Shown here: one piece after another, positions 4,918-35,099 of the stretch
Layout of the letters: every line of letters begins with the position of its first letter
Numbering within the stretch: the first letter of the stretch is position 1
From: Candidatus Marinacidobacterales bacterium
GTDB lineage: Bacteria > Acidobacteriota > Vicinamibacteria > Marinacidobacterales > DATDRI01
Length of the DNA: 64,000 nucleotides
Direction: 5' to 3'
Assembly (NCBI GenBank): GCA_965219415.1
Contig: CBDCNP010000002.1
Location: 2,944,001 to 3,008,000 of the forward strand
Notes under the pieces: model-generated
The model's input: only the letters and a program-made list of their open reading frames with translations
Databases searched by the model: none
Told to the model about the DNA's origin: nothing
Made by a program: the position numbers and the translations under genes

Positions 4918-5054
4918 CAGGACCATCCCACAAAACACTAAGGTTCGAACGGAGAGTTATCAAGGGCGTTCCCAAAACGAAGACGATCCGATTTTGTCGA
5001 TCTACCGGATGGTAAGACACCTTAGGCTCCAAGGGTGCACCCTCGTTACCCTGT

Positions 5055-6419
5055 TTGATACCTGCTCTTGGGATCAACGCGAACGCGGGCGAGCTCCCTG
5101 CCACGTCGGCCGAGACTGCGTACGAGCACGTGGTCTATCTATCGGGCGTCATCGGGGAGAGGACGGCGGGCTCCGAGGCAGAAGAGCGTGCCGCGCTGTA
5201 TATCCTGGGGAAGTTCGAGTCCTGGGGTCTCGATGCCCGGCTGCAGACGTTTCGCCAACCCGTCTGTCGCGCTCGGTCCGCGCACATTTGGACCGAGGGA
5301 GAAAAGCCCCTGTACCTGTCCGCCAAATCGGTCGTGTTTGGCGGAACCACCCCACCCGAAGGTGTCATCGGGGAGCTGGTGGATCTAGGGACGGCGAACG
5401 AAGCGCAACTCGCGGACAGAGACCTCGCGGCAAGAATCGGGCTCGTGAAGCGAGACGTCTACATCGAGTACCCCGACTATTGGCTGACCGACTGCGTGGT
5501 GCCGCGAGGCGTGGCGGGGTTGATCTTTTTCTCACGGCCCGCCGGCGGCAAGCCGACGGCGTATTACAACTACAAGCGAGCGCTCGAAGAGAAGACGCCC
5601 CCCTCTGTTGTCATCACGTACGAAGACGCCGTGGAGTTGCTGAGGAACAACCCGAGCCGCGTGGGGATAGTAGTGGATGCGGAAGTCGGCTGGGGTCAGT
5701 CACGGAACGTCATCGCCGACCTGAAGGGTCATGCCAAGCCGGAAGAGTTAATGTTAATCACAGCGCACTACGACACGGCTTACACCAGCCCGGGAGCCAC
5801 CGACAATACTGGCGGCGTCGCTCTCGTCATGGAGTTGGCGCGGGCGTTTGCGGAAGCCTCGGCCCCGGCGCGGACGCTTCGGTTCATCGCTTTGGGCGGC
5901 CACGAGACCGGCCTTCACGGAAGTGAAGCCTATCTTCGCGCCCATCGGGAGCAAGTGGAGAACATTGTCGCGGTCATTAATTTCGATGCCGGTCACGGAA
6001 CGACTCTAGGTACCGATTCTTGGGTAGCCGCCGGGCCCGACGAGTGGATTCGCTTCGTCAAGGCGGTGACGGACGACTCAGACCTCGAGCCAGAGTGGGC
6101 GGTGGGCACGTACTATTCGGACGACACGAACTTCGCGGCGCTCGAAGTGCCTACCGTGAATTTCGACAAAGGGCTGAGCCGTATTGGTCGTCACACGCCG
6201 AAAGACAATCTGAAGTGGACTTCTCCGGTGGGTCTGCAAGGTGGGCTCCTGATGAGCGCCATGATTCTGGAGAAGATCTCGAGGGATACCTCGCTGACTT
6301 TCCCGCATCAATTCCCCGGTGACCTGATCGAGCGGGTAAGGAACTACGCGGCGCGCTATGGGTGGGGTATACGACCGGAAGCGAATCGGCCGCCGCGCGA
6401 GACTAGAGATCAGCCGTAG
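5055..6419 (+). CDS. PA + M28 metallopeptidase-like protein (true start probably 5009, one base out of frame)
   Basis: AHYD, GATDNTGG, GGHETGLHGS, NFD, HTPKDN motifs; paralog of its neighbours. Confidence 0.85.
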   Translation: MIPALGINANAGELPATSAETAYEHVVYLSGVIGERTAGSEAEERAALYILGKFESWGLDARLQTFRQPVCRARSAHIWTEGEKPLYLSAKSVVFGGTTPPEGVIGELVDLGTANEAQLADRDLAARIGLVKRDVYIEYPDYWLTDCVVPRGVAGLIFFSRPAGGKPTAYYNYKRALEEKTPPSVVITYEDAVELLRNNPSRVGIVVDAEVGWGQSRNVIADLKGHAKPEELMLITAHYDTAYTSPGATDNTGGVALVMELARAFAEASAPARTLRFIALGGHETGLHGSEAYLRAHREQVENIVAVINFDAGHGTTLGTDSWVAAGPDEWIRFVKAVTDDSDLEPEWAVGTYYSDDTNFAALEVPTVNFDKGLSRIGRHTPKDNLKWTSPVGLQGGLLMSAMILEKISRDTSLTFPHQFPGDLIERVRNYAARYGWGIRPEANRPPRETRDQP

Positions 6420-6490
6420 CGGAAAGGGAAGTCAATGCGACTGGAGCTTCGCCTCCAGTTCGCGGCCTCATACTGTCGAGAGGTGATGAG

Positions 6491-7918
6491 ATGGGATTCT
6501 ACCAGCGTACTCCCTTTTATCGATGCGCCATTCTCGGGAGCGTACTTGCAACAATGGCTCCCGCGGCCGGGGGTCAAGGTGGCGCGGGACGGAAGGAGCT
6601 TCCCCCGGTTTCTGCAGAGAAGGCGTTTGTGCACATGGTGCACTTGGCCGGAGCGATCGGAGAACGCACGGCCGGCTCACCAGCCGAGGAGCGAACCGTC
6701 GAGTACCTTCACAACGCGTTCAAGTCGTGGGGGCTCGAGGTACGTATCCAGCCGTTTTCTATAGCGATATGGCACCCGAAAGTAGCCCGAATCTGGACTG
6801 AAGGGGACGAGCCGCTGTCCGTCCAGGCCAATGCCGTTGCCTTCGGAGGGACCACGCCGGTCGAAGGCGTCGTCGGCGAACTGGTGGATGTGGGGACGGC
6901 CAGCCCGCGCCATCTCGAAGGCAAAGACCTGACGGGCAAGATCGTGCTCGTCAAGCGGGACGTCTATATCGACTATCCCGACTATTGGCTCACGGAACGA
7001 CTGCTGCCGCAGAAGGTCGCGGGGATGATTTTCTACTCGGCGAGGGGCGGCGGGGCTACCACGGCTTACTACAATTACAAGCGTTCGCTCAAAGAGAAGA
7101 CGCCGCCATCGGTGGTGATTACGTATGAGGAAGCACTGGCGCTCTTGAAGAGCCGACCGCGGCGGGTCGGGATCGCGGTGGAGGCGGACGTCACCTGGGG
7201 CCAGTCCCGCAACGTCATCGCTGACATCAGGGGCCGATCCAAGCCGGACGAGATTGTTCTCTTATTCGCGCACCACGATTCCGCCATCACGAGCCCCGGC
7301 GCCATCGACGACGCTGGCGGGACCGCCGTGCTCATGGAGCTGGCGCGGGCCTTCTCCGAAATTCCTCCGCCGGCACGAACCATCCGATTCGCCTCCTGGG
7401 GCGGCCACGAGCCGGGGCTCATGGGGAGCGAGGCTTACCTTCGTGCGAACCCCGAGGCCGACCGGCTAGCCGCGGTCATTAGTTTTCATAGCCAGGGCTC
7501 GACTCTCGGGGTGGACACTTGGCGAGCACTTGGGCCGGATGAGTTCATCCGATTTCTCAAACAGGTCGTTGAGAAGTCGGGTCTGGAGGCGCAGGGGGGC
7601 CTGGCCCCGGTCGGCTACGAAGCAAACAGTTTCACGGCGTTGGAAGTGCCAGCCATGTCGATAGGGCGAAGCTTAGGGCCCTCTACCGGACACACTCCGA
7701 AAGACGACCTGAGGTGGTGTTCCCCGGTTGGCCTGGAGGGTGGCCTGCTGCTAGGTGCGATGGTTGCCGGGCGGCTGGCCAACGACTCGGCGCTAACATT
7801 CCCGCACCGGTTGGATCCCGAGTTGCTCAAGAGATCTAGGGCGCGGGCCGCTCGCTGGGGATGGGGTGTACGGCCAGAAGCAAATCGGCCGCCGCACGAG
7901 ACCAGGGATCAGCAGTAG
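6491..7918 (+). CDS. PA + M28 metallopeptidase-like protein
   Basis: Signal-like N-terminus; AHHD, GAIDDAGG, GGHEPGLMGS, HTPKDD motifs. Confidence 0.85.
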   Translation: MGFYQRTPFYRCAILGSVLATMAPAAGGQGGAGRKELPPVSAEKAFVHMVHLAGAIGERTAGSPAEERTVEYLHNAFKSWGLEVRIQPFSIAIWHPKVARIWTEGDEPLSVQANAVAFGGTTPVEGVVGELVDVGTASPRHLEGKDLTGKIVLVKRDVYIDYPDYWLTERLLPQKVAGMIFYSARGGGATTAYYNYKRSLKEKTPPSVVITYEEALALLKSRPRRVGIAVEADVTWGQSRNVIADIRGRSKPDEIVLLFAHHDSAITSPGAIDDAGGTAVLMELARAFSEIPPPARTIRFASWGGHEPGLMGSEAYLRANPEADRLAAVISFHSQGSTLGVDTWRALGPDEFIRFLKQVVEKSGLEAQGGLAPVGYEANSFTALEVPAMSIGRSLGPSTGHTPKDDLRWCSPVGLEGGLLLGAMVAGRLANDSALTFPHRLDPELLKRSRARAARWGWGVRPEANRPPHETRDQQ

Positions 7919-7921
7919 AAG

Positions 7922-9345
7922 TCAATGCGACTGGAGCATCGCCTCCAGCTCGCGGCCGAGGGTGGCTTCGCGAGCCGCCTCCTCGGGTCGTCCGAGACGA
8001 CTGTATGCATCGGCGAGGAGGAAGTGGCCGAGAGCCGAAAAGTCGGAGCGAGGTGAAAGACTCAGACCCTTCTTGGCGAGTGATATCGTCTGCTGGACAT
8101 CGCCGGAGTCGAGAGCGGCCTTGGCCAACAAGAGATACCCTTCGCCAAAATCCGGGCTCGCATCGACTGCCTCCCGATAATGAAAAGTGGCATCGTCGCG
8201 CTGCCCCAAGTTATCCAGGAGTTGGCCCAACTGAAAGTGCGTGAGGTGGCTCGCCGGATGGAGCTCGATCTCCCGGCGGTACTCCGCAAGGGCGCGCTGG
8301 AAGACACCCCGATCCTCCCAAATCTTTGCGAGATTGTGATGAGCTAGGGCGACGTCTTTCTCGGTGCCCAACGCCGCTTCGAAGGCCTGCTGTGCCTCCT
8401 CGAGATCACCGCGCTCGTAAGCTATGACCCCCAGGCCGACCTGCGCCGTCGCCAGCTCGGGACCAAATTCAAGCGCCCTTTCGAAAGCCGCGGCCGCTTG
8501 GTCCAGGTTTTCGAGGTCTAGATTTAACTGCCCCACGAGAAAATGGACACCGGCGTCCTTGGGATTCGTTCCGAGGTAAGCCATGTACGCAGCCAGCGCT
8601 TCCTCGCTCCGGCCGAGCGCGAAATACGCGTTGGCGAGCTCTATCACTGCCACGTCGTAGTCTGGTTTCAGTTTCAGCGCCTGCCTGAAGTCCTCTACTG
8701 CTCGTTCCGGTTGTTCTTGTCGCAAGTGTGCTCGTCCGAGCGTTGTCCAAGCGTCGATCACCGTCGGGTCCTCTTCGATGATCTGGTGGAGCAGTGCTAT
8801 CGCCGCCTCGGCATCGGGTGGATCCGCAGAGAGCCTTTCCCTCGCGTCGGAGAGCTTATTGAATAGATGAATTCTCTCCTTGGGATCCGCCAAGTCCTCC
8901 AGGTCGTTCTTCGGTTCGGCAAACGTGCCGATGTATCCCAGCGACGCCAATCGTGCCCTCGTATCGGCGTCTATTTCCTGGTGAACGGCCGAATCGGCGT
9001 CCGGCCGTTCCATCGACTCTTCGATGTCGGCGAGGCGGTCGCCCATCTCGGTCAGGAGCGAAAGCCGGGCAGCGGCTAGATTGTCTAGCTCCAGAGGATC
9101 CTGGCTAAGATCGTAGAGCTCGGGTCGAGGCGCTTCGATGTATTTCAGAGATCCCATCCGCAACGCCCGAAGCTCGCTCCAGCCGAAGTGATACCGCGGG
9201 TAAAAAGATTCCGCGTAGCCCTCCCGGTTTCCCTCCTCCTCCCCGGCCCCCGCCATAAGCCCGGCTAAGCTCGTCCCGAACGAACTGCCGTTTAGCCCGT
9301 CCGGGACTTGGATCCCCAAAAGGTCGAGGACGGTTGGAAATATGT
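7922..9345 (-). pseudogene. Sulfatase C-terminal region + TPR repeats, 5' part removed at an IS end
   Basis: IFPTVLDLLG..YAESFYPRYHFGWSELRALR..KYIEAPRPELYDL followed by multiple TPRs. The ORF-track N-terminus is read from IS DNA starting at 9346. Confidence 0.8.
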
Positions 9346-10631
9346 TGTCCATCATCATTATTAATCCGGGACTGGACTCTAGGGCCCAGACCGCCCTCGA
9401 GCACATGCTGGAGAGCGTGGTCAGCGCGCGAGGGAAGGTGCTGAGGACAAACTTCTCGGCGACCAGCCGAGTAACGCGAGCGACCAAGCTGACTCAAGCT
9501 GCCTCTCGCCACTCGTATCGATGGTGCAGTCCACCGACTCGCGGCAGTGCGGCTACTTTCGCCGTAGGAGACGGTCGGTGCGTGACCGTTCTCAAGCTCG
9601 GTGTGTCCTTGTTCAGCCCCAAGTGGCAACGGTCCTCATGATAGTAGCTGATGTAAGCTCGCACGAGCCGGATGAGATGACATGCGCCGAGAACCACGAC
9701 GTGCTCAAGGAGCTCGCGACGGCAGCTGCCGACCCACCGCTCCGCGGTTCCGTTTTGCCATGGGCTGCGAAGCGAAGTGCGAACGGGTTTTGTGCCCGTT
9801 GCCTTGATGAACTCGATGACCGCAGCGTTAAAGATGAAGTCGCGATCGAAGATGAGATATCTCGGAGCGGTGTCGTAGGGAAACGCCTCGCGGAGTTGCT
9901 GAATAACCCAAGCAGACGTCGGGTGGAACGTGGCGTTGAAGTGAACGATGTGCCGGCGACCGTGCTCGATGACGAAGAAGCCGTACAGCAGCCGGAGCGA
10001 CGCGGTGGGCACGGTGAACAGATCCATGGCGGCGATATCGTCTTTATGGTTGCGCAAGAAAGCCATCCATCGTTTCAGCTGGTCGGGCTCCGCGGGACGC
10101 CGCGGCAGGTATCGCGACACCGTGCTCTCGGAGATGATGAAACCGAGCTTGGTGAGCTCAGCATGGATGCGTGGCGCCCCCCAGCCGTCTTGCGCCATCG
10201 TGCGGACGAGGCGGCGAATCTCGGCATCAATCCGAGGCCGACCGGGATGGCGGCGCTGCGAGATCTTTGCCCAGTACCGTCGGAATCGGTCGCGATGCCA
10301 ACGGGCTACGGTGTCCGCGTGGACGATGAGCAGGCGGCTCGCCCACACGGGCCACGAACCTCGAAGGGCAACCCAGAAAGCCCGTTCCGTGTCGTCGAGC
10401 GGTGGGCGTGGGCGCTCTTTCTTCAGCGCCGTCACTTGCTGCCGCAAAGCGACGTTCTCCAACACCAGGTCGGCGCGGCGCCGACACATCGCCCGAATGG
10501 CACGGACGCCAAGTGAGACGAGGAAGACAACAACGTTGAGCATAGCGGCGGAGTTTCGCCGTCTTCGGCCCGGAATTCAAGCGGAGCGTAAGTCCTTGAT
10601 TTCGTGGGCGGAGCAGTTTTGACGATGCACA
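9346..10631 (-). mobile_element. Integrase-core (IS481/IS3-like DDE) insertion element A, copy 1; transposase 9494-10543
   Basis: 349 aa rve transposase (WGAPRIHAEL, DLFTV, IFDRD, NGTAERWV, GGLHHRYE). Imperfect TGT..ACA ends (tgtccatcatc / tgtgcatcgtc) and an IHF-like site aatcaaggactta. Near-identical to 22310-23595. Confidence 0.9.
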
Positions 10632-22151: not shown

Positions 22152-22309
22152 GGCCTCGGGGCGAAGGCTAACACGAAGGGTAAAGCTCGCGACGTTGGCT
22201 GGTTTCGAGTGCCGTTGCCCGTCCTGTGCCAAAACTCGGCCCTTTCGAAATAGACCATAAATCAGCAGCTTAGCGACTGGGCCAAGGGCCCCTAGGCTTT
22301 ACAGTTACC

Positions 22310-23595
22310 TGTGCATCGTCAAAACTGCTCCGCCCACGAAATCAAGGACTTACGCTCCGCTTGAATTCCGGGCCGAAGACGGCGAAACTCCGCCGCTATG
22401 CTCAACGTTGTTGTCTTCCTCGTCTCACTTGGCGTCCGTGCCATTCGGGCGATGTGTCGGCGCCGCGCCGACCTGGTGTTGGAGAACGTCGCTTTGCGGC
22501 AGCAAGTGACGGCGCTGAAGAAAGAGCGCCCACGCCCACCGCTCGACGACACGGAACGGGCTTTCTGGGTTGCCCTTCGAGGTTCGTGGCCCGTGTGGGC
22601 GAGCCGCCTGCTCATCGTCCACGCGGACACCGTAGCCCGTTGGCATCGCGACCGATTCCGACGGTACTGGGCAAAGATCTCGCAGCGCCGCCATCCCGGT
22701 CGGCCTCGGATTGATGCCGAGATTCGTCGCCTCGTCCGCACGATGGCGCAAGACGGCTGGGGGGCGCCACGCATCCATGCTGAGCTCACCAAGCTCGGTT
22801 TCATCATCTCCGAGAGCACGGTGTCGCGATACCTGCCGCGGCGTCCCGCGGAGCCCGACCAGCTGAAACGATGGATGGCTTTCTTGCGCAACCATAAAGA
22901 CGATATCGCCGCCATGGATCTGTTCACCGTGCCCACCGCGTCGCTCCGGCTGCTGTACGGCTTCTTCGTCATCGAGCACGGTCGCCGGCACATCGTTCAC
23001 TTCAACGCCACGTTCCACCCGACGTCTGCTTGGGTTATTCAGCAACTACGCGAGGCGTTTCCCTACGACACCGCTCCGAGATATCTCATCTTCGATCGCG
23101 ACTTCATCTTTAACGCTGCGGTCATCGAGTTCATCAAGGCAACGGGCACAAAACCCGTTCGCACTTCGTTTCGCAGCCCATGGCAAAACGGAACCGCGGA
23201 GCGATGGGTCGGCAGCTGCCGTCGCGAGCTCCTTGAGCACGTCGTGGTTCTCGGTGCATGTCATCTCATCCGGCTCGTGCGAGCTTACATCAGCTACTAT
23301 CATGAGGACCGTTGCCACTTGGGGCTGAACAAGGACACACCGAGCTTGAGAACGGTCACGCACCGACCGTCTCCTACGGCGAAAGTAGTCGCACTGCCGC
23401 GAGTCGGTGGACTGCACCATCGATACGAGTGGCGAGAGGCAGCCTGAGTCAGCTTGGTCGCTCGCGTTACTCGGCTGGTCGCCGAGAAGTTCGTCCTCAG
23501 CACCTTCCCTCGCGCGCTGACCACGCTCTCAAGCATGGGCTCGAGGGCGGTCCGGGCCCTAGAGTCCAGTCCCGGATTAATAATGATGATGGACA
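22310..23595 (+). mobile_element. Integrase-core element A, copy 2; transposase 22398-23447
   Basis: Near-identical inverted copy of 9346-10631. Confidence 0.9.
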
Positions 23596-24907: not shown

Positions 24908-25104
24908 GTCTTCCTCCTATCTCTGCATCAGTGCGCGCTCACTCCCCGTGCGCGCGCCCGGCGCCTCGCTCCTCGCTCGGCGCACCCTCCGGCGGCCCAT
25001 GCGGGCCGGGCTCGCTCCGCTCGCAGCAGGCTGCTAGTGCCTCGAGTGCAGGGCTCATTATATGCAAACAGGCCTGTTAGAATATGCTCCCATTGGGTCC
25101 TCGA

Positions 25105-25262
25105 ATGAAAGAGCAGCAAGATCTCTTTAGCTCACGCTGGGGCATTCTGCTTGCCGCCATCGGGATGGCCGTGGGGACGGGCAATATCTGGCGGTTTCCG
25201 CGTGTGGCCGCCGCGAATGGCGGTGGCGCCTTCCTCATCGCCTGGCTGGTTTTCATGTTCGC
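25105..25262 (+). pseudogene. Sodium-dependent (NSS/SNF) transporter 5' fragment
   Basis: FSSRWGILLAAIGMAVGTGNIWRFP..GGGAFLI, cut by IS5 DNA. Confidence 0.8.
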
Positions 25263-25518
25263 GTAATAGACCCGTTGACCGCCAGGCTTACCGCTCTTGT
25301 CGGCCTTCCAGTTCGCGATTGCCTCCTCGTCAAACCAGACCGTCAAATCGCCCCGGCGGCGCAGCCCTTCGTTGTATTCCGCCCAGTTGGAAACGTGGTA
25401 CTTCTTCTGTTTCGCGTGTTTGTACTGGCTGCGCTTGGGATACTTCATGGTCGAACATTACCTCGGCCACCACCATAGGTAGATTTCGCGCTCAGCCAAG
25501 AGCGGTGCAACAACGCCG
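25263..25518 (-). mobile_element. IS5 family (IS903 group) left-end fragment
   Basis: YHVSNWAEYNEGLRRRGDLTVWF..GGQRVY; end GGCGTTGTTGCA. Confidence 0.75.
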
Positions 25519-25620
25519 CCCTGCGGCGCGAAATACCCTGGATTTTGCGCGGATTCCAAGGGCGTCTAAGCTGCTGATTTGTGGGCTATTTCAAAAGGGC
25601 CGAGTTTTGGCACAGGACGG

Positions 25621-26009
25621 GGTCGGCAGCTGCCGTCGCGAGCTCCTTGAGCACGTCGTGGTTCTCGGCGCATGTCATCTCATCCGGCTCGTGCGAGCTT
25701 ACATCAGCTACTATCACGAGGACCGTTGCCACTTGGGGCTGAACAAGGACACACCGAGCTTGAGAGCGGTCACGCACCGACCGTCTCCTACGGCGAAAGT
25801 AGTCGCACTGCCGCGAGTCGGTGGACTGCACCATCGATACGAGTGGCGAGAGGCAGCCTGAGTCAGCTTGGTCGCTCGCGTTACTCGGCTGGTCGCCGAG
25901 AAGTTCGTCCTCAGCACTTTCCCTCGCGCGCTGACCACGCTCTCCAGCATGTGCTCGAGGGCGGTCCGGGCCCTAGAGTCCAGTCCCGGACAAATAATGA
26001 TGATGGACA
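25621..26009 (+). mobile_element. 3' fragment and right end of integrase-core element A
   Basis: Matches 23207-23595. Confidence 0.85.
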
Positions 26010-26123: not shown

Positions 26124-27329
26124 TCAACCAAGATGATAGGCAGAGATGACTTCCTCCTTTATCAATCCTCTATGACCGGAACGTGTGGGAGCCAGCAATC
26201 TATCGCTGATCGGGTCGCTGAATCGGTCGAAGAGCGTGAAGCCCTTCTCCTCCAGAATCGTCTGAATAACATCCCAAGTACGAATTCTTGCGCCTCCGAT
26301 AAGGTTGTCTCCGCATACAACCACGAAGCAGGCATTGTGACTCAATGTTTCCTTCACTGCATCGAACGCATTACCCATGTCGTAAAGGTAACGATGGACA
26401 ACTGCGCAAAGCCGAGGAGCGCTAGCCTTTAGGCGCCTCAGCGCTGGTACCAATGCATAGTCTCTCTCAATGGATTCCTGAGGTACTTGCTCCAATAACT
26501 GGCCTCGTTCTGTTCCTACGAAGCGTTCCCGAAGGTCGCTCACTTTAAAGGGCAAGACATCTTCCAATAGATACAACTCAAGCTTGAAGTTTCGGAAGTA
26601 GTCCTGCGCGTTGATGTAAGGCGGAGAGGTTATAGCATGGGAGTGTTTGCCTAGGTCACCAAATCGTCGGCGTGGATCGCAGACATCAGCGCAAACGAAA
26701 CGAGAACGAGCGTTCCCTTTCCAATTGAAACCATAGAGTGCTGAGAGTTGCTCTAATAGTTCGAGGATCGTTCGGTTCGGATCGAAATGCCGGCCAGCTC
26801 TCGAACACCGTGCTTGCCTTGAAATGAAAGGCTTCGGGCTGCGCTGGTCAGCTCTGGAGCAGAGTCTAACCGCGAGTGTGTAACTGAGAAGGATGGCTCT
26901 GCCCTCGGGGCTGTTTCTGAGGGGAACGATCCTACTCGCCGCTCTCAATAGCTCGAACTTATTGAGAGTGCCCTGTGTAAACCAGTAGTCTTTGCCACTC
27001 CAATCAACCGGAAGTGGCCGGATGGATCGCTGTGCCTCCGCGATCCACGTCCTGCCAAGTTCCAGAGCACGAGCGGGATTGAAACCCCTGAGCTTCACGT
27101 AACAGAATAATTCTGAGATCGGATTCAGATCGATGCCGGAAACGGGAAGTCCGGCTTGGTTGGCTGCAACGAGGATCGCGCCCGATCCGCAAAACGGATC
27201 GAGAACGGAATCGGCCCCAGAGGCGTATCGCTGGATTAGACGGTCCGCCAGCTTGGACACCATTTTGGCAGGATAGCGATCCAGTCTCGTGGTCAGCCTC
27301 ACCTGTCGTCGGTTGTTTTTAGAATCCAA
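26124..27329 (-). CDS. Amino-DNA methyltransferase (N4C/N6A, alpha-type motif order)
   Basis: YPAKM, VLDPFCGSG (motif I) preceding ITSPPY (motif IV). Confidence 0.85.
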   Translation of the reverse strand: MDSKNNRRQVRLTTRLDRYPAKMVSKLADRLIQRYASGADSVLDPFCGSGAILVAANQAGLPVSGIDLNPISELFCYVKLRGFNPARALELGRTWIAEAQRSIRPLPVDWSGKDYWFTQGTLNKFELLRAASRIVPLRNSPEGRAILLSYTLAVRLCSRADQRSPKPFISRQARCSRAGRHFDPNRTILELLEQLSALYGFNWKGNARSRFVCADVCDPRRRFGDLGKHSHAITSPPYINAQDYFRNFKLELYLLEDVLPFKVSDLRERFVGTERGQLLEQVPQESIERDYALVPALRRLKASAPRLCAVVHRYLYDMGNAFDAVKETLSHNACFVVVCGDNLIGGARIRTWDVIQTILEEKGFTLFDRFSDPISDRLLAPTRSGHRGLIKEEVISAYHLG

Positions 27330-28249
27330 GTCTCACCGAGTCCTCTGGAATAGAAGGCGTGGTTGTGCCGTAGCGGGCTGGCATAAACGATGGCTGGTGG
27401 ATCGTCTGACTCCCTGATGTAGCTATAGACACCTAGGGTCTGTGGCTTGGTGCCAAGTGGGCAGATGATCCTCGCGAAATCATCTCTCCTAGACTGTCCG
27501 AGAACATTTGTGAGAGTTGTACTTGTGTCGTCTGGATCGAGTGCATCGACCTTGAGGACTGCTTGTTCTTCGACCAAGGCCAGAAGGTCGTGGTTGAACT
27601 GCTCGGTTTTTCCTGTCCAATCTGGCCTGTATGGAGGATGGGGCACTACTAGGGTTGTCTTCATCGGCTGGGTTTGTTCATATACCGCCAACGCCCTATC
27701 ACCTTCATACCCCAAAAACATCATCAAGTGAACAGGCCGACTGAGATCTGGACACGCAGAAAACCCGGGAGTTTGCTGGATGGAAGCGAGTCCGAACGAA
27801 AGCGGGATGTGCTGAGAAACCAGGTAATTTTCTGGCTCACTATACACGACATACAGTCGATCCCAGAGGTCACAGTCATCAAGCCATCTAAGCATCATGA
27901 GCAGATGTCGTTTTGTAAATACGGATATGTCCATCACGACAGCCTTATTGTCGGAACAATTTATAACGTGCTGAAGATGCCGCATGTTGGCGCGGAGGCT
28001 TCTGACCGCGTCCGCTTCGGTGAACTGTAGGACTGTCAACCGAGAGACCATTTTCCGGAATGCGGACTCCATATAGCGATGGTTCTTTTCGCGGATGGGG
28101 TTATAGTCATCGTAGTGGAAGAGGACTACTTCGCTCGGCGACCAACTCTGAGTACGAGACAGAAGGCCCCTGCACCGGTATTCGTGACTAGAACATGTAA
28201 CAAGCACCGCCCCATTGGGCAGGTCCCTTGCTACCAGTTGTTGTCTCAC
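27299..28249 (-). CDS. Hypothetical protein with two Rossmann-like (CARF-like) repeats
   Basis: VMDISVFTKRHLL..VVYSEP and IICPLGTKPQTLG..IVYASP resemble duplicated CARF motifs. Overlaps both neighbours. Confidence 0.55.
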   Translation of the reverse strand: MRQQLVARDLPNGAVLVTCSSHEYRCRGLLSRTQSWSPSEVVLFHYDDYNPIREKNHRYMESAFRKMVSRLTVLQFTEADAVRSLRANMRHLQHVINCSDNKAVVMDISVFTKRHLLMMLRWLDDCDLWDRLYVVYSEPENYLVSQHIPLSFGLASIQQTPGFSACPDLSRPVHLMMFLGYEGDRALAVYEQTQPMKTTLVVPHPPYRPDWTGKTEQFNHDLLALVEEQAVLKVDALDPDDTSTTLTNVLGQSRRDDFARIICPLGTKPQTLGVYSYIRESDDPPAIVYASPLRHNHAFYSRGLGETWILKTTDDR

Positions 28250-30525
28250 TCGTGGTCTCCCGGTGCGAAGGGAAGGCTATCCCGTGTACTTTTGCTTGTT
28301 CCAGACTTCGCTACGGCGTTCTTCAATTCTTGCACCGCTTTAGCTCTCATGCCGGGTTGAAGCAAGCACTGCAACTGCTGGCATTTTATGTTCGTTCTCC
28401 AGCGGAGGCGTGGGCTAACCTGGAGAACAGGTGCATAGATCCGACAGATATTGAATTCTGCGGGTTGAGGATCGGAGCCATGCTTTGGCTTGAACGCCGG
28501 AAGTCCTTCCTTAGTCTGAAATACTCCCTCGCGTTCCCCAACAGCAAGGATGCACTTCAACTTATCCATGGTTCTGTCCTCCAGCATCTCCGGATCCTTG
28601 AGAGTCAGACGCGCAGCCTCCGGCTCGCTCGTGTGCTTGAGTAGTTTGTGCCGCAGACAGTCACCGAGGTCCAGCAGAAAATACTTGAGTTCTTCACCGT
28701 ATTGCTCGACGTTTCGGCTGAGCGTCGTAAGGTTGTGCTGAGAGACGATATGAACGGCCTTGGACTGTCGGTCAGGTGAGATGGTGAAGGCTCCTTGCGG
28801 GGGAGGATGATCGCCGAAGTCAAGATGGTAGCCCACACTCAAAAATTCCTGAAAGTAGCGGATTACTCCCGAGCTGAGGAGTGCGAGCTCGCTGAATCCT
28901 GCAAACCGTTTTTCGGCGTGGCGTCCGCGCTTTCCAAGAATGACCCGGTAGGTCGCTGCTGTACCGTAGTACGTTCGCCTCTCGTGCTGCCTCTCGTCCG
29001 ATAAATCCGCAAACTCCTCAGGCGTGGTCTTGCTGAGCTTTGCCACTTCTGCCAACCATAAGGTCTCATCGACTTCGGGATCGCGAAGCCGTGGAAGGAG
29101 CTTGTCTACGTCGACCTGCTCTGTTCCTTCAAGCCCAGCCATGTTTGATACGATGTGGCGCAATAGTTCGTAGTAAGCGTTTCGTTCAGACACGTCTTCG
29201 ATGTTGTAGACCAATGGAACTCTTGTGTAGTCGTGGATCTCTTGCAGTTCCTGACCTATCGTGGTTCCAGGGACATCTTCGCTGGCAAGCTTCTTGGCGA
29301 TCTTGACTGAGATATGCGGAGGACCCAGCTTGAGCATGCTGTTGACGATTCGTTTCTGATAGGGGAAAAGATTCTCATACTCATCAAGCAGAATAACGAA
29401 CATTGACTCTTTGAGCGACGGAACGTGTTGGCGAACCAGGTCTATGACGCGTTTGAATTGCTCTAGATCAAGGGTCGCTATCGGGACATGAACGGTTTCA
29501 CCATAAATGAATTTACGGCGAATGAAATTAGCCAGACCCCTGTGCAGTCGCGAGAGTTTTAGTTGTAGTTCGATGAACGAAATGGCTCGACCATCCTTAA
29601 AATCCAACAGTAATTCGTCCGCTTCTTCGCAGAGTCTCCGTTCGACGAACCGATCATGATTGATCAAATCGTGCTCGACGCAGTACGCCAATTCTGAGAA
29701 CAAACTCTCCGTCATCTGCAGAATTAGTTCTTGTGCGGCAACATCTGTGAGGATGCCAATGTCCGTGGTCGGACTTAGGTGTTGGGTTTCGAAGCGGACT
29801 CCTGCATTACAAATTGCCCCTCGGGTTAGCTTCAAGTAGAAACCGAAGCGTTGGGGCGCACATTTTTCATAGGGATTCCGCAGTAGAGAATTACGAGCAC
29901 GTAAGGACAGCAACAGCATTGACTTTCCGGTGCCCCTCGAACCTTCGAGAATGCACGGTTTCATATCCTCGAGAGCCCCAACTTTGAAGGCGTCTGGTAG
30001 CGCGAAGGTCTTTACGTGGAGATCAGGCTGGTTCTCAAAGAACTCAGCTCTAAGGTGGCGAAAAGGATTCTGTGAATTAGGTTTGAAAGCGTCGGCAACC
30101 AAAGACGACATCGTCGGACTGCTGAAGAGTAGGTTGCAGATGTCTTCCACCAACTTGTTGAGAGATGCCTGATCCTCTGGTATTAGCCGTCCATATACTT
30201 TGGGCCCAAGTACGGGCGGTATCTTTGTGTCGTCCAGGCGAACGACAATGCACCGCCCACCATCGTAAGCGACTTGATTCCAAACTGCGGCATTGATTTC
30301 CAGATTCTGCCACGGCGCAGCGCGGGTGTGCATGGAGAAGAGAATGATGACCGCCTTGGCATTCGCGATTCCTTCGTTTATGAAAGCAATGGGGTTGTCG
30401 CCAAGAGCAAGGTCTTGTGTATCGATCTTAGTCTCATGGCCGGCATTGCGTAGGTGTTGTACCAACTCTGTCGCAATTTCCGCATCCGCAGTGGCATGTG
30501 AAACGAAGATGTGCGTGATACTCAT
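28246..30525 (-). CDS. TIR domain + ORC/CDC6-like P-loop NTPase
   Basis: IFVSHA..D..L..GD..I..GI..WQNLE (TIR with catalytic-position Glu); Walker A GSRGTGKS; Walker B ILLDEYE. Confidence 0.8.
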   Translation of the reverse strand: MSITHIFVSHATADAEIATELVQHLRNAGHETKIDTQDLALGDNPIAFINEGIANAKAVIILFSMHTRAAPWQNLEINAAVWNQVAYDGGRCIVVRLDDTKIPPVLGPKVYGRLIPEDQASLNKLVEDICNLLFSSPTMSSLVADAFKPNSQNPFRHLRAEFFENQPDLHVKTFALPDAFKVGALEDMKPCILEGSRGTGKSMLLLSLRARNSLLRNPYEKCAPQRFGFYLKLTRGAICNAGVRFETQHLSPTTDIGILTDVAAQELILQMTESLFSELAYCVEHDLINHDRFVERRLCEEADELLLDFKDGRAISFIELQLKLSRLHRGLANFIRRKFIYGETVHVPIATLDLEQFKRVIDLVRQHVPSLKESMFVILLDEYENLFPYQKRIVNSMLKLGPPHISVKIAKKLASEDVPGTTIGQELQEIHDYTRVPLVYNIEDVSERNAYYELLRHIVSNMAGLEGTEQVDVDKLLPRLRDPEVDETLWLAEVAKLSKTTPEEFADLSDERQHERRTYYGTAATYRVILGKRGRHAEKRFAGFSELALLSSGVIRYFQEFLSVGYHLDFGDHPPPQGAFTISPDRQSKAVHIVSQHNLTTLSRNVEQYGEELKYFLLDLGDCLRHKLLKHTSEPEAARLTLKDPEMLEDRTMDKLKCILAVGEREGVFQTKEGLPAFKPKHGSDPQPAEFNICRIYAPVLQVSPRLRWRTNIKCQQLQCLLQPGMRAKAVQELKNAVAKSGTSKSTRDSLPFAPGDHE

Positions 30526-30545: not shown

Positions 30546-31631
30546 TGACCTTGCCCAGGAGAAGTGGGCAGGTTGATTATCTCGCATGAGCAGTTTTGGG
30601 GTCATGAATCCGTTCGAACACCATTGGGCTGTTGTAATCGAGTGACGAGTGGAGTCGACACGGATTGTAGAACCCCTCGATGTAGCTCGCAACCGCGTCT
30701 TTGGCCATACGTCGTGTTGGCCAACTACGTCGGTGGAGGAGCTCAGTCTTGAGCGTGCCGAAGAAGCTCTCGGTCACGGCGTTGTCCCAGCAATCACCCT
30801 TGCGGCTCATCGAGCACGGCCTAGTAGGTCGCAGCCGCGTATTGAGTGCCACGGTCTGAATGATGCACCAAGCCACTTTCCGACAGGCGGCGCCCCAAGG
30901 CCATGTGAAGCGCCTTGAGAGCAAGCTCCGCGCGCAGGTGGGGCTGCATCGCCCAGCCGACAATACGACGCGAGAACAGATCGAGGATAACTGCCAAGTA
31001 GAGCCAGCCTTCCCTAGTACGGATGAGGGTTATGTCCGTTACCAAAACTGGTTCGGTCGTTCGGCTTCGAAGTTCCGGCCGAGCACGTTGGGTGCGATAG
31101 GGTGATCGTGCTTGCTGTTGGTCGTGCGGCGAAAACGCTTGCTAGGCAGGCCCTGCAGGCCCATCTCACGCATCAGCCGTGCCACTTGCTGCTTGCCCAC
31201 CTCGACGTTTCCCCTTCAAGCTGGCGACGTACACGCTCCCTGCCGTAGGTACCACGGCTATGGGTGTGGACCGCTTGGTTGCGCAGCTTCAGTTTCCCAT
31301 CCTCACGCTGTCGCTTGCTGGGCGCGCGCTTCATCTGAGCGTAGTAGCCGCTGGTCTATACCCTCAGGACTCGGCACATCACCCGCACCGGGTAGTTGGC
31401 CCGCTCCGCATGAATGAACTTAAATCTCATTCGCCTTCCTTTTTAATATTTCTCGCTCTTGCTCCAACGTACGCACTCGACGCCGTAGCGAACGGAGCTC
31501 ATCACGTTCCGCCGTCGTCAGAACCTCGCGTGGACCTTTACCTTGATCAACTTTGTATTGTTTCACCCAGTTTCGAAGGGCTGATTCCGTCAGGTCCGGT
31601 TTCTTAGTGATCTGGCCGATGCTGCGCTCGC
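30546..31631 (-). mobile_element. Degenerate IS3 copy (relative of 13238-14500)
   Basis: Same right end tgaccttgcccagg; deletions and frameshifts; 5' end missing. Confidence 0.85.
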
Positions 31632-31700
31632 CCGGCTGGTCAAAATACTCGAACGCCCAGCGGGTCAGCAATTTGCACCTTCGCAAAGACCGCTTGAATC

Positions 31701-32214
31701 CCGTGAGGTCAAAATACTCATGCGGCTTCCCGATGGTAGAAACGTAGCAACCCGCCAAGCCGTTCACGGGAGCGCACCTTGCGCTCGGACTGAGGTAACG
31801 GGTCGCTGGCTGGGAACAGCAGCAGATTCTCCTTGCCTTGATGATTCCTCTCGTGGTGATAGTAGACGACGTACTCCCTAAGCGCATGACGGAGCGACTT
31901 CTCGCCGAACAGGATGAGCTTCGAGAGACATTCCTCTTTGACTGACTTCACCCAGCGCTCCGCGAACGAGTTCAAATCCAGGCTCCGTGCGGGCAGCTTG
32001 ACGGGCGCGACGCCAACCGCCTCGATGGTCCGGTGGAACGACTCGCAGAACTTCGAGTCCCGGTCGTGAATGAGGTATCGGCTCGAGGACAGAAAGCCGA
32101 CATCTGCCATGGTCACGTTGCGAGCCACTTGAGTCATCCACTGTTCGTTCGGATGCGGCGTGATGCCGGCGACGTGGACTCGACGGGTAGCCAGGTGCAT
32201 GAAGAACAGAACGT
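31701..32214 (-). mobile_element. Integrase-core element B 3' fragment
   Basis: LIHDRDSKF..NSFAERWVKSVKEECL..GGLLRFYHREAA*; end CCGTGAGGTCAAAATACTC. Confidence 0.8.
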
Positions 32215-32361
32215 CGTCCTGTGCCAAAACTCGGCCCTTTTGAAATAGACCACAAATCAGCAGCTTAGACGCCCTTGGAATCCGCGCAGAATCCAGGGTA
32301 TTTCGCGCCGCAGGGCTGACTTCCGACCCATGGGCTGACGGATGAATAAATAGAAGGCACA
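32215..32361 (+). repeat. ~145 bp MITE-like unit (also 33294-33440 and 62158-62304)
   Basis: TGTGCCAAAACTC...GAATAAATAGAAGGCACA; three near-identical copies. Confidence 0.8.
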
Positions 32362-33244: not shown

Positions 33245-33503
33245 GATGCTTGAGATCGTAGCGGGCGCTATCTATGAGATCTTGGTCGGCGGGCGTCCTG
33301 TGCCAAAACTCGGCCCTTTAGAAATAGACCACAAATCAGCAGCTTAGACGCCCTTGGAATCCGCGCAGAATCCAGGGTATTTCGCGCCGCAGGGCTGACT
33401 TCCGACCCATGGGCTGGCGAATGAATAAATAGAAGGCACACCTCTACACCCACATCGAGCCGCTTTTGGCCGGTGATGTTCCATTCTTGTGAATAGCCAC
33501 GAA

Positions 33504-33938: not shown

Positions 33939-34471
33939 GTCGCACCTCCTGGAAAAAGATAATCTACTCTGTCCTGTGCCAAAACTCGGCTCTTTTGAAA
34001 TAGACCATAAATCAGCAGCTTAGTGTTTGTGTTTGCGACCGGGCCAAGGCGGCCCAAGGGTCTTGAGTTCGTTTGTATTCTTGGACACGACGGCCACGTC
34101 AGGAACAATTCGGGCTTCATCCGAGAGCCGTGGCCGTTTCACGGAACGGCGGAGGACGACGAGCTGCTGCCGAAGAGCGACATTCTCAGGAGCCAGCTCG
34201 CGACGAGCCTTGAAGCCGGAGATGAGAGCGGGAACCAACGACGAAATCATGCCGGCATGGTGCTGGCAGACCGGAGATTATTCAAGTTTGGTGCGTGCGG
34301 ATAAATAAATAGAAGGCACAGGCGCTTACGCTCCATTTAGCGCGCAGCGAAAGTCGTGAGCGCTATTTGGGCTGTAATTTAATGCACCGTAAAGTCTAGC
34401 GTCATCTCACCAACACTTAATGGCGAAAGCACCGTTCGACGAGTTTCGTCCGTTCTTCGAGAACTATCGGG

Positions 34472-34768: not shown

Positions 34769-35099
34769 CGCAGCAGTATACTCCAAGGATCCTGGGCATT
34801 TGCCTTTGCTGGCGTTGACGCCTGGCGAGCCCGTCCTGTGCCAAAACTCGGCCCTTTTGAAATGGACCACAAATCAGCAGCTTAGACGCCCTTGGAATCC
34901 GCGCAGAATCCAGGGTATTTCGCGCCGCAGGGCTGGCTTCCGACCCCTGGGCTGCGGGTGGCGGGCGACAGGCCCACTGGGGTACGCACGGCTGGCTGGC
35001 TCAAATCGGCTGCAGGACGAGCTGCAGGCCGCGAACTGCGCACCCGCGGAAGCGCCCATTGGACTGGACTTTACGGCGCAAAAGAGCGAACGTCCGGTG

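Follow-up and report, generated by a model that had tools for sequence, protein, structure and literature searches.

What is the function of a compact operon in which a TIR-ATPase, a CARF-type protein without an effector domain and an amino-methyltransferase without a restriction nuclease stand side by side? The question is raised by a 4.4 kb locus in a 64,000-nucleotide stretch of DNA (the window, whose positions are used below) from Candidatus Marinacidobacterales bacterium (Acidobacteriota; GenBank assembly GCA_965219415.1, contig CBDCNP010000002.1, positions 2,944,001 to 3,008,000). Three intact open reading frames (ORFs) were found on the minus strand, all at the coordinates given in a preliminary description of this DNA. 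Gene 1 (28246-30525, 759 amino acids (aa)) encodes a TIR domain with an ORC/Cdc6-like ATPase, gene 2 (27299-28249, 316 aa) a protein of the CARF6 clade, and gene 3 (26124-27329, 401 aa as the longest ORF, from a TTG start at 27329) an amino-methyltransferase. The three-gene operon is confirmed as real and intact, and the observation is far beyond chance because its genes match hidden Markov models (HMMs) with E-values of 9.9e-50 (gene 1), 2.5e-26 (gene 2) and 8.7e-13 (gene 3). We consider it reasonably probable that the operon represents a widespread candidate anti-phage system with an ATPase-CARF6 core, in the form that has a TIR as effector, and the best reading of its parts is a methylation-linked, CARF-gated TIR abortive-infection system.

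The junction of genes 1 and 2 is GTGA, with an overlap of 4 bp as first described. The 31-bp overlap that had been given for genes 2 and 3 is obtained only with the longest-ORF start (TTG 27329); an in-frame GTG at 27302 creates a second GTGA junction and a 4-bp overlap with gene 2. The shorter overlap is likelier, because in at least six homologous loci (L001, L002, L004, L005, L007 and L010) a start of gene 3 upstream of the equivalent of GTG 27302 is impossible. Gene 3 therefore probably encodes 392 aa from GTG 27302, and both junctions of the operon would be 4-bp couplings. The G+C content is 0.49-0.54 over the operon versus 0.59-0.63 in the left flank and 0.55-0.64 in the right flank, in line with the lower value noticed before. 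The scan for promoters and terminators stayed at chance level (3 found versus 3.0 expected).

In gene 1, residues 6-125 (30151-30510, minus strand) match Pfam TIR_2 with an E-value of 3.6e-19, and residues 153-708 (28402-30069, minus strand) match the ORC-CDC6-like family PF24389 with an E-value of 9.9e-50 (170.3 bits versus a cut-off of 27) over profile positions 1-566 of 571. The motif WQNLE, in which the preliminary description had seen the catalytic-position Glu, is conserved: W72 and E76 are kept in 18/19 aligned homologs, the only form without them being that of Nitrosopumilus (L034). In comparison with four solved bacterial TIR chains, among them BtpA/TcpB (WPARE) and BtTir (WTEYE), E76 lines up with a Glu; this Glu is catalytic in the solved proteins, which makes E76 the putative catalytic position. 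AbTIR, TcpB, PdTIR and Cat1 were matched in the TIR profile search, and Foldseek gave template modelling (TM) scores to the target of 0.6-0.77 for AbTir, BtpA, PdTIR and the SPARTA TIR. Profile, fold and Glu all point to a TIR domain of the type that consumes nicotinamide adenine dinucleotide (NAD+).

The Walker motifs that had been reported for gene 1 are invariant in the homologs. In Walker A (GxGKS, residues 195-202), G195, R197, G198, G200 and K201 are the same in 19/19 sequences, as are D381, E382, Y383 and E384 of Walker B (LLDEYE, residues 379-384); G195, G198, G200, K201, D381 and E382 are also invariant in 81/81 members of the wider ATPase family. The AlphaFold2 model of gene 1 has a mean predicted local distance difference test (pLDDT) value of 77 and a predicted TM-score of 0.76. 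Its Foldseek neighbours are headed by the plant TIR-NLR protein RPP1, CED-4 and Avs5, and include archaeal ORC2 and RdrA, with BrxC at rank 49. The long C-terminal region is rich in helical and winged-helix elements, and no Pfam match to NACHT, NB-ARC, TPR or WD40 was obtained in gene 1 at E <= 1, as expected from the described absence of a TPR or WD sensor. Gene 1 is thus predicted to join a TIR domain to an AAA+ ATPase of the ORC/Cdc6-like (STAND) type, with no repeat sensor.

Gene 2 was best matched by the PADLOC model PDLC01917 (CARF6--CARF_CARF_CARF) with an E-value of 2.5e-26 (residues 13-311 versus positions 15-301 of 308), and ten PADLOC CARF6 models match it at E <= 8e-4. The naming scheme of CARF6 presumably comes from Makarova et al. 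2020 in Nucleic Acids Research. No Pfam family was above its cut-off in gene 2 (the weak match of HFX_2341_N to residues 173-256 has an E-value of 0.003), and a search of the PDB sequences with the gene 2 profile gave nothing meaningful. When the structural model was compared with 48,161 chains by VIA-align, ranks 1-17 were all CARF proteins with Z scores of 8.5-11.7, led by VC1899 (Z 11.7, root-mean-square deviation 3.2, 131 aligned residues), Can2 (11.5), Csa3 (11.0), Card1 (10.7) and Csm6 (10.3); this match spans the first domain of gene 2 only. Residues 170-290 form an alpha/beta, Rossmann-like domain with the T-K loop PLGTKPQ, whose best structural match is the generic Rossmann protein 4dim (Z 6.9). 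Foldseek with the whole model was uninformative (TM ~0.2) and was set aside; the packing of the domains is uncertain. Gene 2 is predicted to be an effector-less CARF-type protein with two Rossmann-like halves, and the modelled CARF fold concerns the first half only.

In gene 2, DISVFTKRH (residues 107-115) and PLGTKPQ (264-270) are conserved, with DISVFTK and PLGTKPQ invariant in 19/19 in the motif comparison; residue by residue, D107, S109 and T112 never vary and K113 is present in at least 90% of the 19 sequences, which hold many further invariant polar residues. D107-I-S109-V-F-T-K113 follows the model strand 104-107 and fits [DN]x[ST]xxx[RK], which we take to be the CARF ligand-site motif after strand 4. 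Homologs of gene 2 are numerous (446 proteins at E <= 0.001); among the 120 matches listed, identity was 56-89% and none was named, and the protein atlas holds solely unnamed 'hypothetical protein' clusters for it. A complex prediction of gene 2 with gene 3, run without controls, scored 0.00 and is evidence neither way.

Gene 3 matches Pfam N6_N4_Mtase (E 8.7e-13), and its residues 17-393 match the PADLOC model MTase_II PDLC03362 (E 4.1e-19). Motif I (DPFCGSG, residues 44-50) stands about 185 residues ahead of motif IV (TSPPY, residues 234-238), and both are invariant in 14/14 sequences. These features point to an S-adenosylmethionine (SAM)-dependent amino-methyltransferase of the alpha type with DNA as its likely substrate and either N6-methyladenine or N4-methylcytosine as its product.

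The conservation of the trio, proposed in the preliminary description as a check, was surveyed by a pattern scan with one genome per species, which gave 34 loci. Their hosts belong to Latescibacterota, Nitrospirales, Acidobacteriota, Verrucomicrobia, Planctomycetota, Betaproteobacteria, Spirochaetia, Hydrogenedentota, Methanoregula and Nitrosopumilus. The order gene 1-gene 2-gene 3 is kept throughout by tblastn; 22/34 loci are whole and one further locus is cut by a contig end alone. The TIR domain is present in 29/34 loci (26 by tblastn and three archaeal ones by Pfam). Clustering of all ORFs returned three shared families only (in 34, 33 and 32 loci), and the example members of the next-largest clusters are opposite-strand ORFs inside the three genes. 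No conserved nuclease or fourth gene was found among the ORF families of the 34 loci, so that gene 3 stands, as had been stated, as an amino-methyltransferase without a cognate nuclease. For the same reason, type II restriction-modification was rejected: a methyltransferase is present, with no cognate endonuclease family in the 34 loci.

Several of the trio loci are damaged, most often in gene 1. It is interrupted by insertions in L005 (4663-6255, no Pfam match), L006 (two UPF0236 copies at 5289-6867 and 7903-9477, of which one separates gene 2 from gene 3), L014 (4548-5476, a DDE_Tnp_1 transposase) and L016 (4254-6024, an ISL3 transposase), which are independent events; in L017 it is frameshifted, and in L009 and L012 it is absent and gene 3 is fragmentary too. 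L023 and L028 are short contigs. That the effector gene has been lost so often hints that gene 1 is costly to its host; the IS3 element within the ATPase gene of the second locus in the window's own genome (L050, below) is a further case. The Nitrosopumilus locus (L034, 4774-11029 of a metagenome-assembled genome) differs in content: its ATPase bears an N-terminal 137-aa domain with neither a TIR match nor the catalytic Glu, and no gene-3 homolog is present. Just downstream of it, an AlwI-like restriction nuclease is accompanied by a methylase of the C5 kind; among the 34 loci, such a nuclease was seen near L034 only.

The ATPase and the CARF6 protein were then followed beyond the trio. A HMMER search with the ATPase part of gene 1 gave 462 cluster representatives, 81 of them full-length, which fall into three groups: ATPases extended at the N-terminus by 135-220 aa (for the most part TIR-like), bare ATPases of ~620-670 aa, and a few that carry extra C-terminal segments, a TIR among them (grouping by length class and blastp clustering, with Pfam run on 10 exemplars). 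Among 21 fetched genomic regions, CARF6 is directly downstream of the PF24389 ATPase or fused to it in 18 (9/10 in the window's phylum and 9/11 in Planctomycetota). The local CARF6 HMM used for this count was built including three of the scored proteins, which PADLOC supported independently; in one of the three regions without CARF6 (L064) the contig stops 421 bp past the ATPase gene. The CARF6 proteins of relatives match sister PADLOC models at E-values of 2e-83 and 4e-63. Fused ATPase-CARF6 forms of 1233-1237 aa occur in L055 and L059, and the PADLOC model CARF6--CARF_STK_AAA represents a fused kinase-ATPase-CARF form, which together argue for a physical coupling of the two proteins. The linkage of ATPase and CARF6 is tight and ancient.

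Around this pair the effectors change. A TIR is fused to the ATPase in L054 and L067 and a protein kinase in L050, L055 and L056; beside the ATPase-CARF6 pair stand PRTase-CE genes in L051, L061 and L070, HD-CE genes in L053 and L063, a calcineurin-like gene in L052 and a SIR2_2 gene in L057. Such swapping, which the preliminary description had suggested to look for in homologs and which was indeed observed, is typical of defence systems. The core of the system is the ATPase-CARF6 pair, with effectors exchanged around it.

DNA methylases adjoin the pair in 10/21 regions and belong to three unrelated families. The gene-3 type is found in six regions (L050, L054, L056, L057, L067 and L069), a beta-class N6_N4 methylase in one (L061) and a C5 methylase in three (L053, L063 and L065). 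In the last two, both from Planctomycetota, the C5 methylase just downstream of the pair is fused to an HhH-GPD glycosylase (5273-7069 in L063 and 5191-6972 in L065), and the EndoIII iron-sulphur motif was noticed in L065. The window's own genome carries a second, divergent locus of the family (L050; contig C2, 2305-8238, minus strand). In this locus the methylase (7114-8238) comes first in order, unlike in the window operon, followed by an ORC-CDC6-like ATPase with a fused protein kinase, into whose gene an IS3-type transposase has inserted (5853-7130, 4645-5496 and 3364-4599), and by CARF6 (2305-3360), all on the minus strand.

Whether these parts amount to a system already described was judged against the named ones, and none of the named-system models of PADLOC fits the whole operon. 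The parts are catalogued in PADLOC and Pfam. Gene 2, which stands alone and has no effector domain, is a full-length match to the CARF6 clade (PDLC01910-PDLC01925); what sets it apart is that the partners of its subfamily are an SPPY methylase and an ATPase that bears a TIR. The family PF24389 and its conflict-effector partners PRTase-CE, HD-CE and calcineurin-CE were reportedly described by Nicastro, Burroughs, Iyer and Aravind in Nucleic Acids Research in 2023. PF24389, PF24390 (PRTase-CE) and PF24391 (HD-CE) are consecutive Pfam accessions and were found together here, which suggests that all three were defined by one paper. The likeness to these systems lies in the pairs that stand with PRTase-CE, HD-CE or calcineurin-like genes (L051, L052, L053, L061, L063 and L070); in the window operon, however, the effector is no separate upstream gene but a TIR that forms the N-terminal part of the ATPase protein, and the third gene is an alpha-type amino-methylase. 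The literature search, outside which lay the likeliest source papers (Makarova 2020, Nicastro 2023) and their supplements, found no paper describing or naming the trio and no experiment on any member. The preliminary description had not recognised the combination as a named system; this holds in that no named system fits, but the novelty was overstated, gene 2 belonging to the PADLOC CARF6 clade and the ATPase to PF24389.

With the TIR-STAND and NLR-like proteins (Avs, bNACHT, RPP1), gene 1 shares an N-terminal TIR on a STAND/ORC-type NTPase and the expected NTP-driven oligomerisation that activates the TIR; it differs in having no C-terminal TPR, WD40 or LRR sensor and in its separate CARF and methylase partners, and would thus act as a TIR-STAND protein whose sensor is outsourced. 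Membership of Avs or bNACHT was rejected, as no NACHT, NB-ARC, TPR or WD40 match was obtained, although the fold is STAND/ORC-like. The BREX-related DUF499 ATPases, according to a 2026 paper in Nucleic Acids Research (PMC12839542), often bear an N-terminal effector (HEPN), and BREX resembles the operon in joining an ORC/Cdc6-clade ATPase (BrxC/DUF499) to a DNA methylase (PglX/DUF1156) without a classical restriction nuclease. The window operon differs from BREX by its CARF sensor and NADase-type TIR and has no helicase-nuclease. BREX membership was rejected: PglZ, BrxA, BrxB and BrxL are not among the conserved families of the 34 loci, and the DUF1156 match of gene 3 (E 9.8e-5 over 53 residues, versus a cut-off of 1000 bits) reflects a shared SAM motif only.

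Cat1, Can2, Card1, Csm6 and Csa3 share the CARF fold of the first domain of gene 2 (Z 10-11.7), and Cat1 also combines CARF sensing with TIR output. In the window operon, by contrast with Cat1, the CARF domain and the TIR belong to different proteins, with an ATPase as the bridge, and gene 2 would be a single-chain pseudo-dimer instead of a homodimer. Membership among the type III CRISPR ancillary effectors was rejected, as no Cas10 was found in 5/5 carrier genomes. Thoeris also unites, in one operon, a TIR with a conserved Glu and a Rossmannoid nucleotide sensor, and weak ThsB matches were obtained; the window TIR, in contrast, is fused to an ATPase, and a methylase is present. Thoeris membership was rejected, since the operon has no ThsA (SIR2 or Macro with SLOG) and the 34 loci do not share one. 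Also rejected were the PADLOC part-matches of gene 1 (its TIR to PDC-S66 with E 7.7e-11 over residues 5-85, to ThsB and to retron-TIR), the PADLOC matches mad8 (E 0.038) and mad2 (E 2.6e-5) as evidence of membership, and the NCBIfam matches to retron TIR, DS41_1 and Sll1717, which are far below their cut-offs.

How the operon might work was set out in the preliminary description as self-marking, NTPase-driven clustering of TIR domains and ligand sensing by gene 2, and this is still the best reading. The gene 3 methylase would mark host DNA at a sequence motif. The gene 1 ATPase would be both switch and scaffold and, on an infection cue, would bind ATP and oligomerise, by homology with the STAND/ORC-type NTPases. 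Oligomerisation would gather the N-terminal TIR domains and lead to destruction of NAD+ or to an NAD-derived product, and the infection would be aborted; the conserved catalytic Glu is consistent with this step. Gene 2 would sit on the ATPase and gate it once a small nucleotide has bound in the pocket that the halves of gene 2 form, a coupling suggested by the gene fusions in relatives. DNA methylation itself would be needed, and not a side activity of gene 3, because one methylase family is replaced by unrelated ones.

Several observations weigh against this reading. In L011 an intact gene 1 stands with a frameshifted gene 3, which is unexpected if loss of the mark is lethal; an error of the long-read assembly is possible. 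No methylase was seen beside the pair in L052, L055, L059, L060, L068 and L070, and self-marking therefore cannot be essential to the core pair. In L051 (5998-6915) and L056 (10979-11956), the gene directly after CARF6 encodes a thymidylate-synthase-like ThyX (Thy1), which is not a DNA methylase, and such neighbours fit nucleotide chemistry better than DNA marking; L056 has a DNA methylase as well. The model of gene 2 is of moderate quality (pLDDT 69, with the loops 139-167 and 290-310 below 50), its second half has a generic Rossmann protein as best match (Z 6.9), and hhalign detected no similarity between its N-terminal and C-terminal halves. The single-chain tandem CARF without effector that had been described thus stands for the first half (Z up to 11.7); the second half is Rossmann-like with its matching T-K loop and is at most a putative CARF domain. 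Finally, tblastn of gene 2 versus plasmid and phage collections gave no match, and mobility therefore rests on insertion sequence (IS) context and phyletic spread alone.

If gene 2 is a sensor, the source of its signal has to be considered. In type III CRISPR, CARF domains are known to receive cyclic oligoadenylates. The Cas10 models TIGR02578 and TIGR02577 (Csm1, Cmr2) were over cut-off in 0/5 carrier genomes, with one sub-threshold match of 30 bits in G402, and the same models matched in five known type III hosts used as positive controls; SMODS (CD-NTase) was likewise over cut-off in 0/5. The CARF6 ligand would thus seem not to come from Cas10 or a CD-NTase. The lack of another nucleotide-signal source in the five carrier genomes tested favours signalling as in Thoeris, in which the TIR would be no killer but a signal generator, making an NAD-derived nucleotide that CARF6 reads, either for feedback or for control of the methylase or some other cellular target. 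A TIR and a Rossmannoid sensor in one operon do recall ThsB and the SLOG domain of ThsA, the matches to Pfam ThsB_TIR (E 2e-4) and PADLOC ThsB (E 3e-5) are weak ones in this direction, and the solved CARF-TIR effector Cat1 is among the TIR profile matches. We nevertheless regard this explanation as quite improbable. The TIR is swapped for PRTase-CE, HD-CE, calcineurin-like, SIR2 and kinase modules, which are degradative or modifying and not signal synthases, while CARF6 stays, and a TIR product is thus unlikely to be the CARF6 ligand; furthermore, gene 2 has no effector domain to actuate.

The orphan methylase without a nuclease and the nucleotide sensor without a cyclase are both accounted for by the strongest rival of the self-marking reading, which we hold to be possible, if rather unlikely. 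Under it, phage-induced breakdown of the chromosome would free methylated mono- or oligonucleotides, which the CARF6 pocket would bind, thereby switching on the ATPase-TIR protein; the methylome would thus supply a danger signal, and recognition of an unmethylated invader would not be the purpose of the mark. That methylases of unrelated families adjoin the pair fits any methyl-mark model, this one included. A precedent is PUA-Cal-HAD, for which a preprint (bioRxiv 10.64898/2026.01.15.699771) reports that the trigger is m6-dAMP, set free when Dam-methylated DNA of the host is degraded; the effector there is a calcineurin-CE, a kind that also occurs beside the ATPase-CARF6 pair. The pairs without an adjacent methylase (L052, L060, L068 and L070) speak against this explanation too, there is no evidence for CARF domains binding methylated nucleotides, and the ORC/Cdc6-like module is left without a sensing role. 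There is perhaps an outside chance of the same order that CARF6, outside CRISPR, senses a modified nucleotide of host origin: the methylase of the operon would give the chromosome a private mark, DNA breakdown caused by phage would free the marked nucleotides, and the single-chain CARF pseudo-dimer, on reading them, would license the ORC-like ATPase to assemble an NAD+-destroying TIR complex. If true, CARF signalling would extend beyond cyclic oligoadenylates, and methylation as precursor of a danger signal would be a general design across unrelated methylases (amino and C5) and effectors.

The surroundings of the operon are decayed mobile DNA, as had been recorded, with transposase fragments and IS-end repeats on both sides. 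In the left flank, a 300-nt copy of the 3' fragment of an rve transposase (25620-25919) is 99% identical to 23206-23505, the ORF 25151-25861 duplicates the C-terminus of the transposase at 22398-23447, and a DDE fragment lies at 25077-25448. In the right flank, IS3-type rve/HTH fragments are split over short separate ORFs (30577-30963, 30821-31045, 31420-31887 and 31718-32227; Pfam rve, rve_2, rve_3 and HTH_Tnp_1). An inverted pair of IS-end repeats (25518-25619 and 32215-32316; 102 nt, 98% complementary) flanks the operon on both sides. The repeat has six copies in both orientations (22217-22273, 25518-25643, 32212-32361, 33291-33440, 33967-34023 and 34829-34978; 57-147 nt, 86-100% identical), several of them without an adjoining transposase gene, and these may be solo ends or a derivative, similar to a miniature inverted-repeat transposable element, of the rve-type IS at 22398-23447. 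Elsewhere in the window, the ORFs 9494-10543 (minus strand) and 22398-23447 (plus strand) are of equal length (349 aa), the second being an rve_3 transposase, and they are probably two full copies of one IS.

The nearest relatives of the operon are in other phyla (77-81% identity), and the copies of the same class are 71-74% identical. The operon was gained by horizontal transfer into an IS-rich region, as its low G+C content, its IS-derived flanks and its nearest relatives in other phyla indicate. The family is rare: PF24389 was found in 11/401 genomes of the window's phylum, a tally that includes the window's own genome and the unpublished genome G049, and in 11/401 genomes of Planctomycetota, and it was not found in 14 control genomes. 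This patchy spread in each of two phyla, the IS context, the repeated inactivation of the effector gene and the absence of gene 1 where gene 3 is fragmentary (L009 and L012) would also suit a selfish addiction module, with the methylase as antidote, keeping the genome marked, and the ATPase-TIR protein as a poison that fires when the module has been lost and self DNA is left unmarked; the operon would then persist through post-segregational killing and spread along with IS elements. We give such a module a small chance, since it leaves the conserved CARF6 sensor and the effector swapping unexplained and many pairs have no methylase; moreover, one module may serve both addiction and defence, as classical restriction-modification does. 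The same rarity and the absence from the control genomes count against a housekeeping or regulatory role (epigenetic control, or a replication-linked ORC-like function) with no part in conflict. The ORC/Cdc6 ancestry of the ATPase and the strong sequence conservation of all three proteins are in its favour. The signs of horizontal transfer, and a TIR that keeps its catalytic Glu and is replaced in relatives by other nucleotide-targeting effectors, make such a role very improbable.

In conclusion, the operon is compact and intact, offers clear targets for point mutation, and is suited to cloning and phage assays. A CARF protein tied to an ORC/Cdc6-like ATPase across bacteria and archaea, in genomes without Cas10 or CD-NTase (0/5), raises the question of which ligand it receives. 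The recurrence of three unrelated methylase families next to the pair, in the absence of a nuclease, points to restriction-free methylation in immunity, in which the methyl group may serve as a self mark or as the source of a danger signal.

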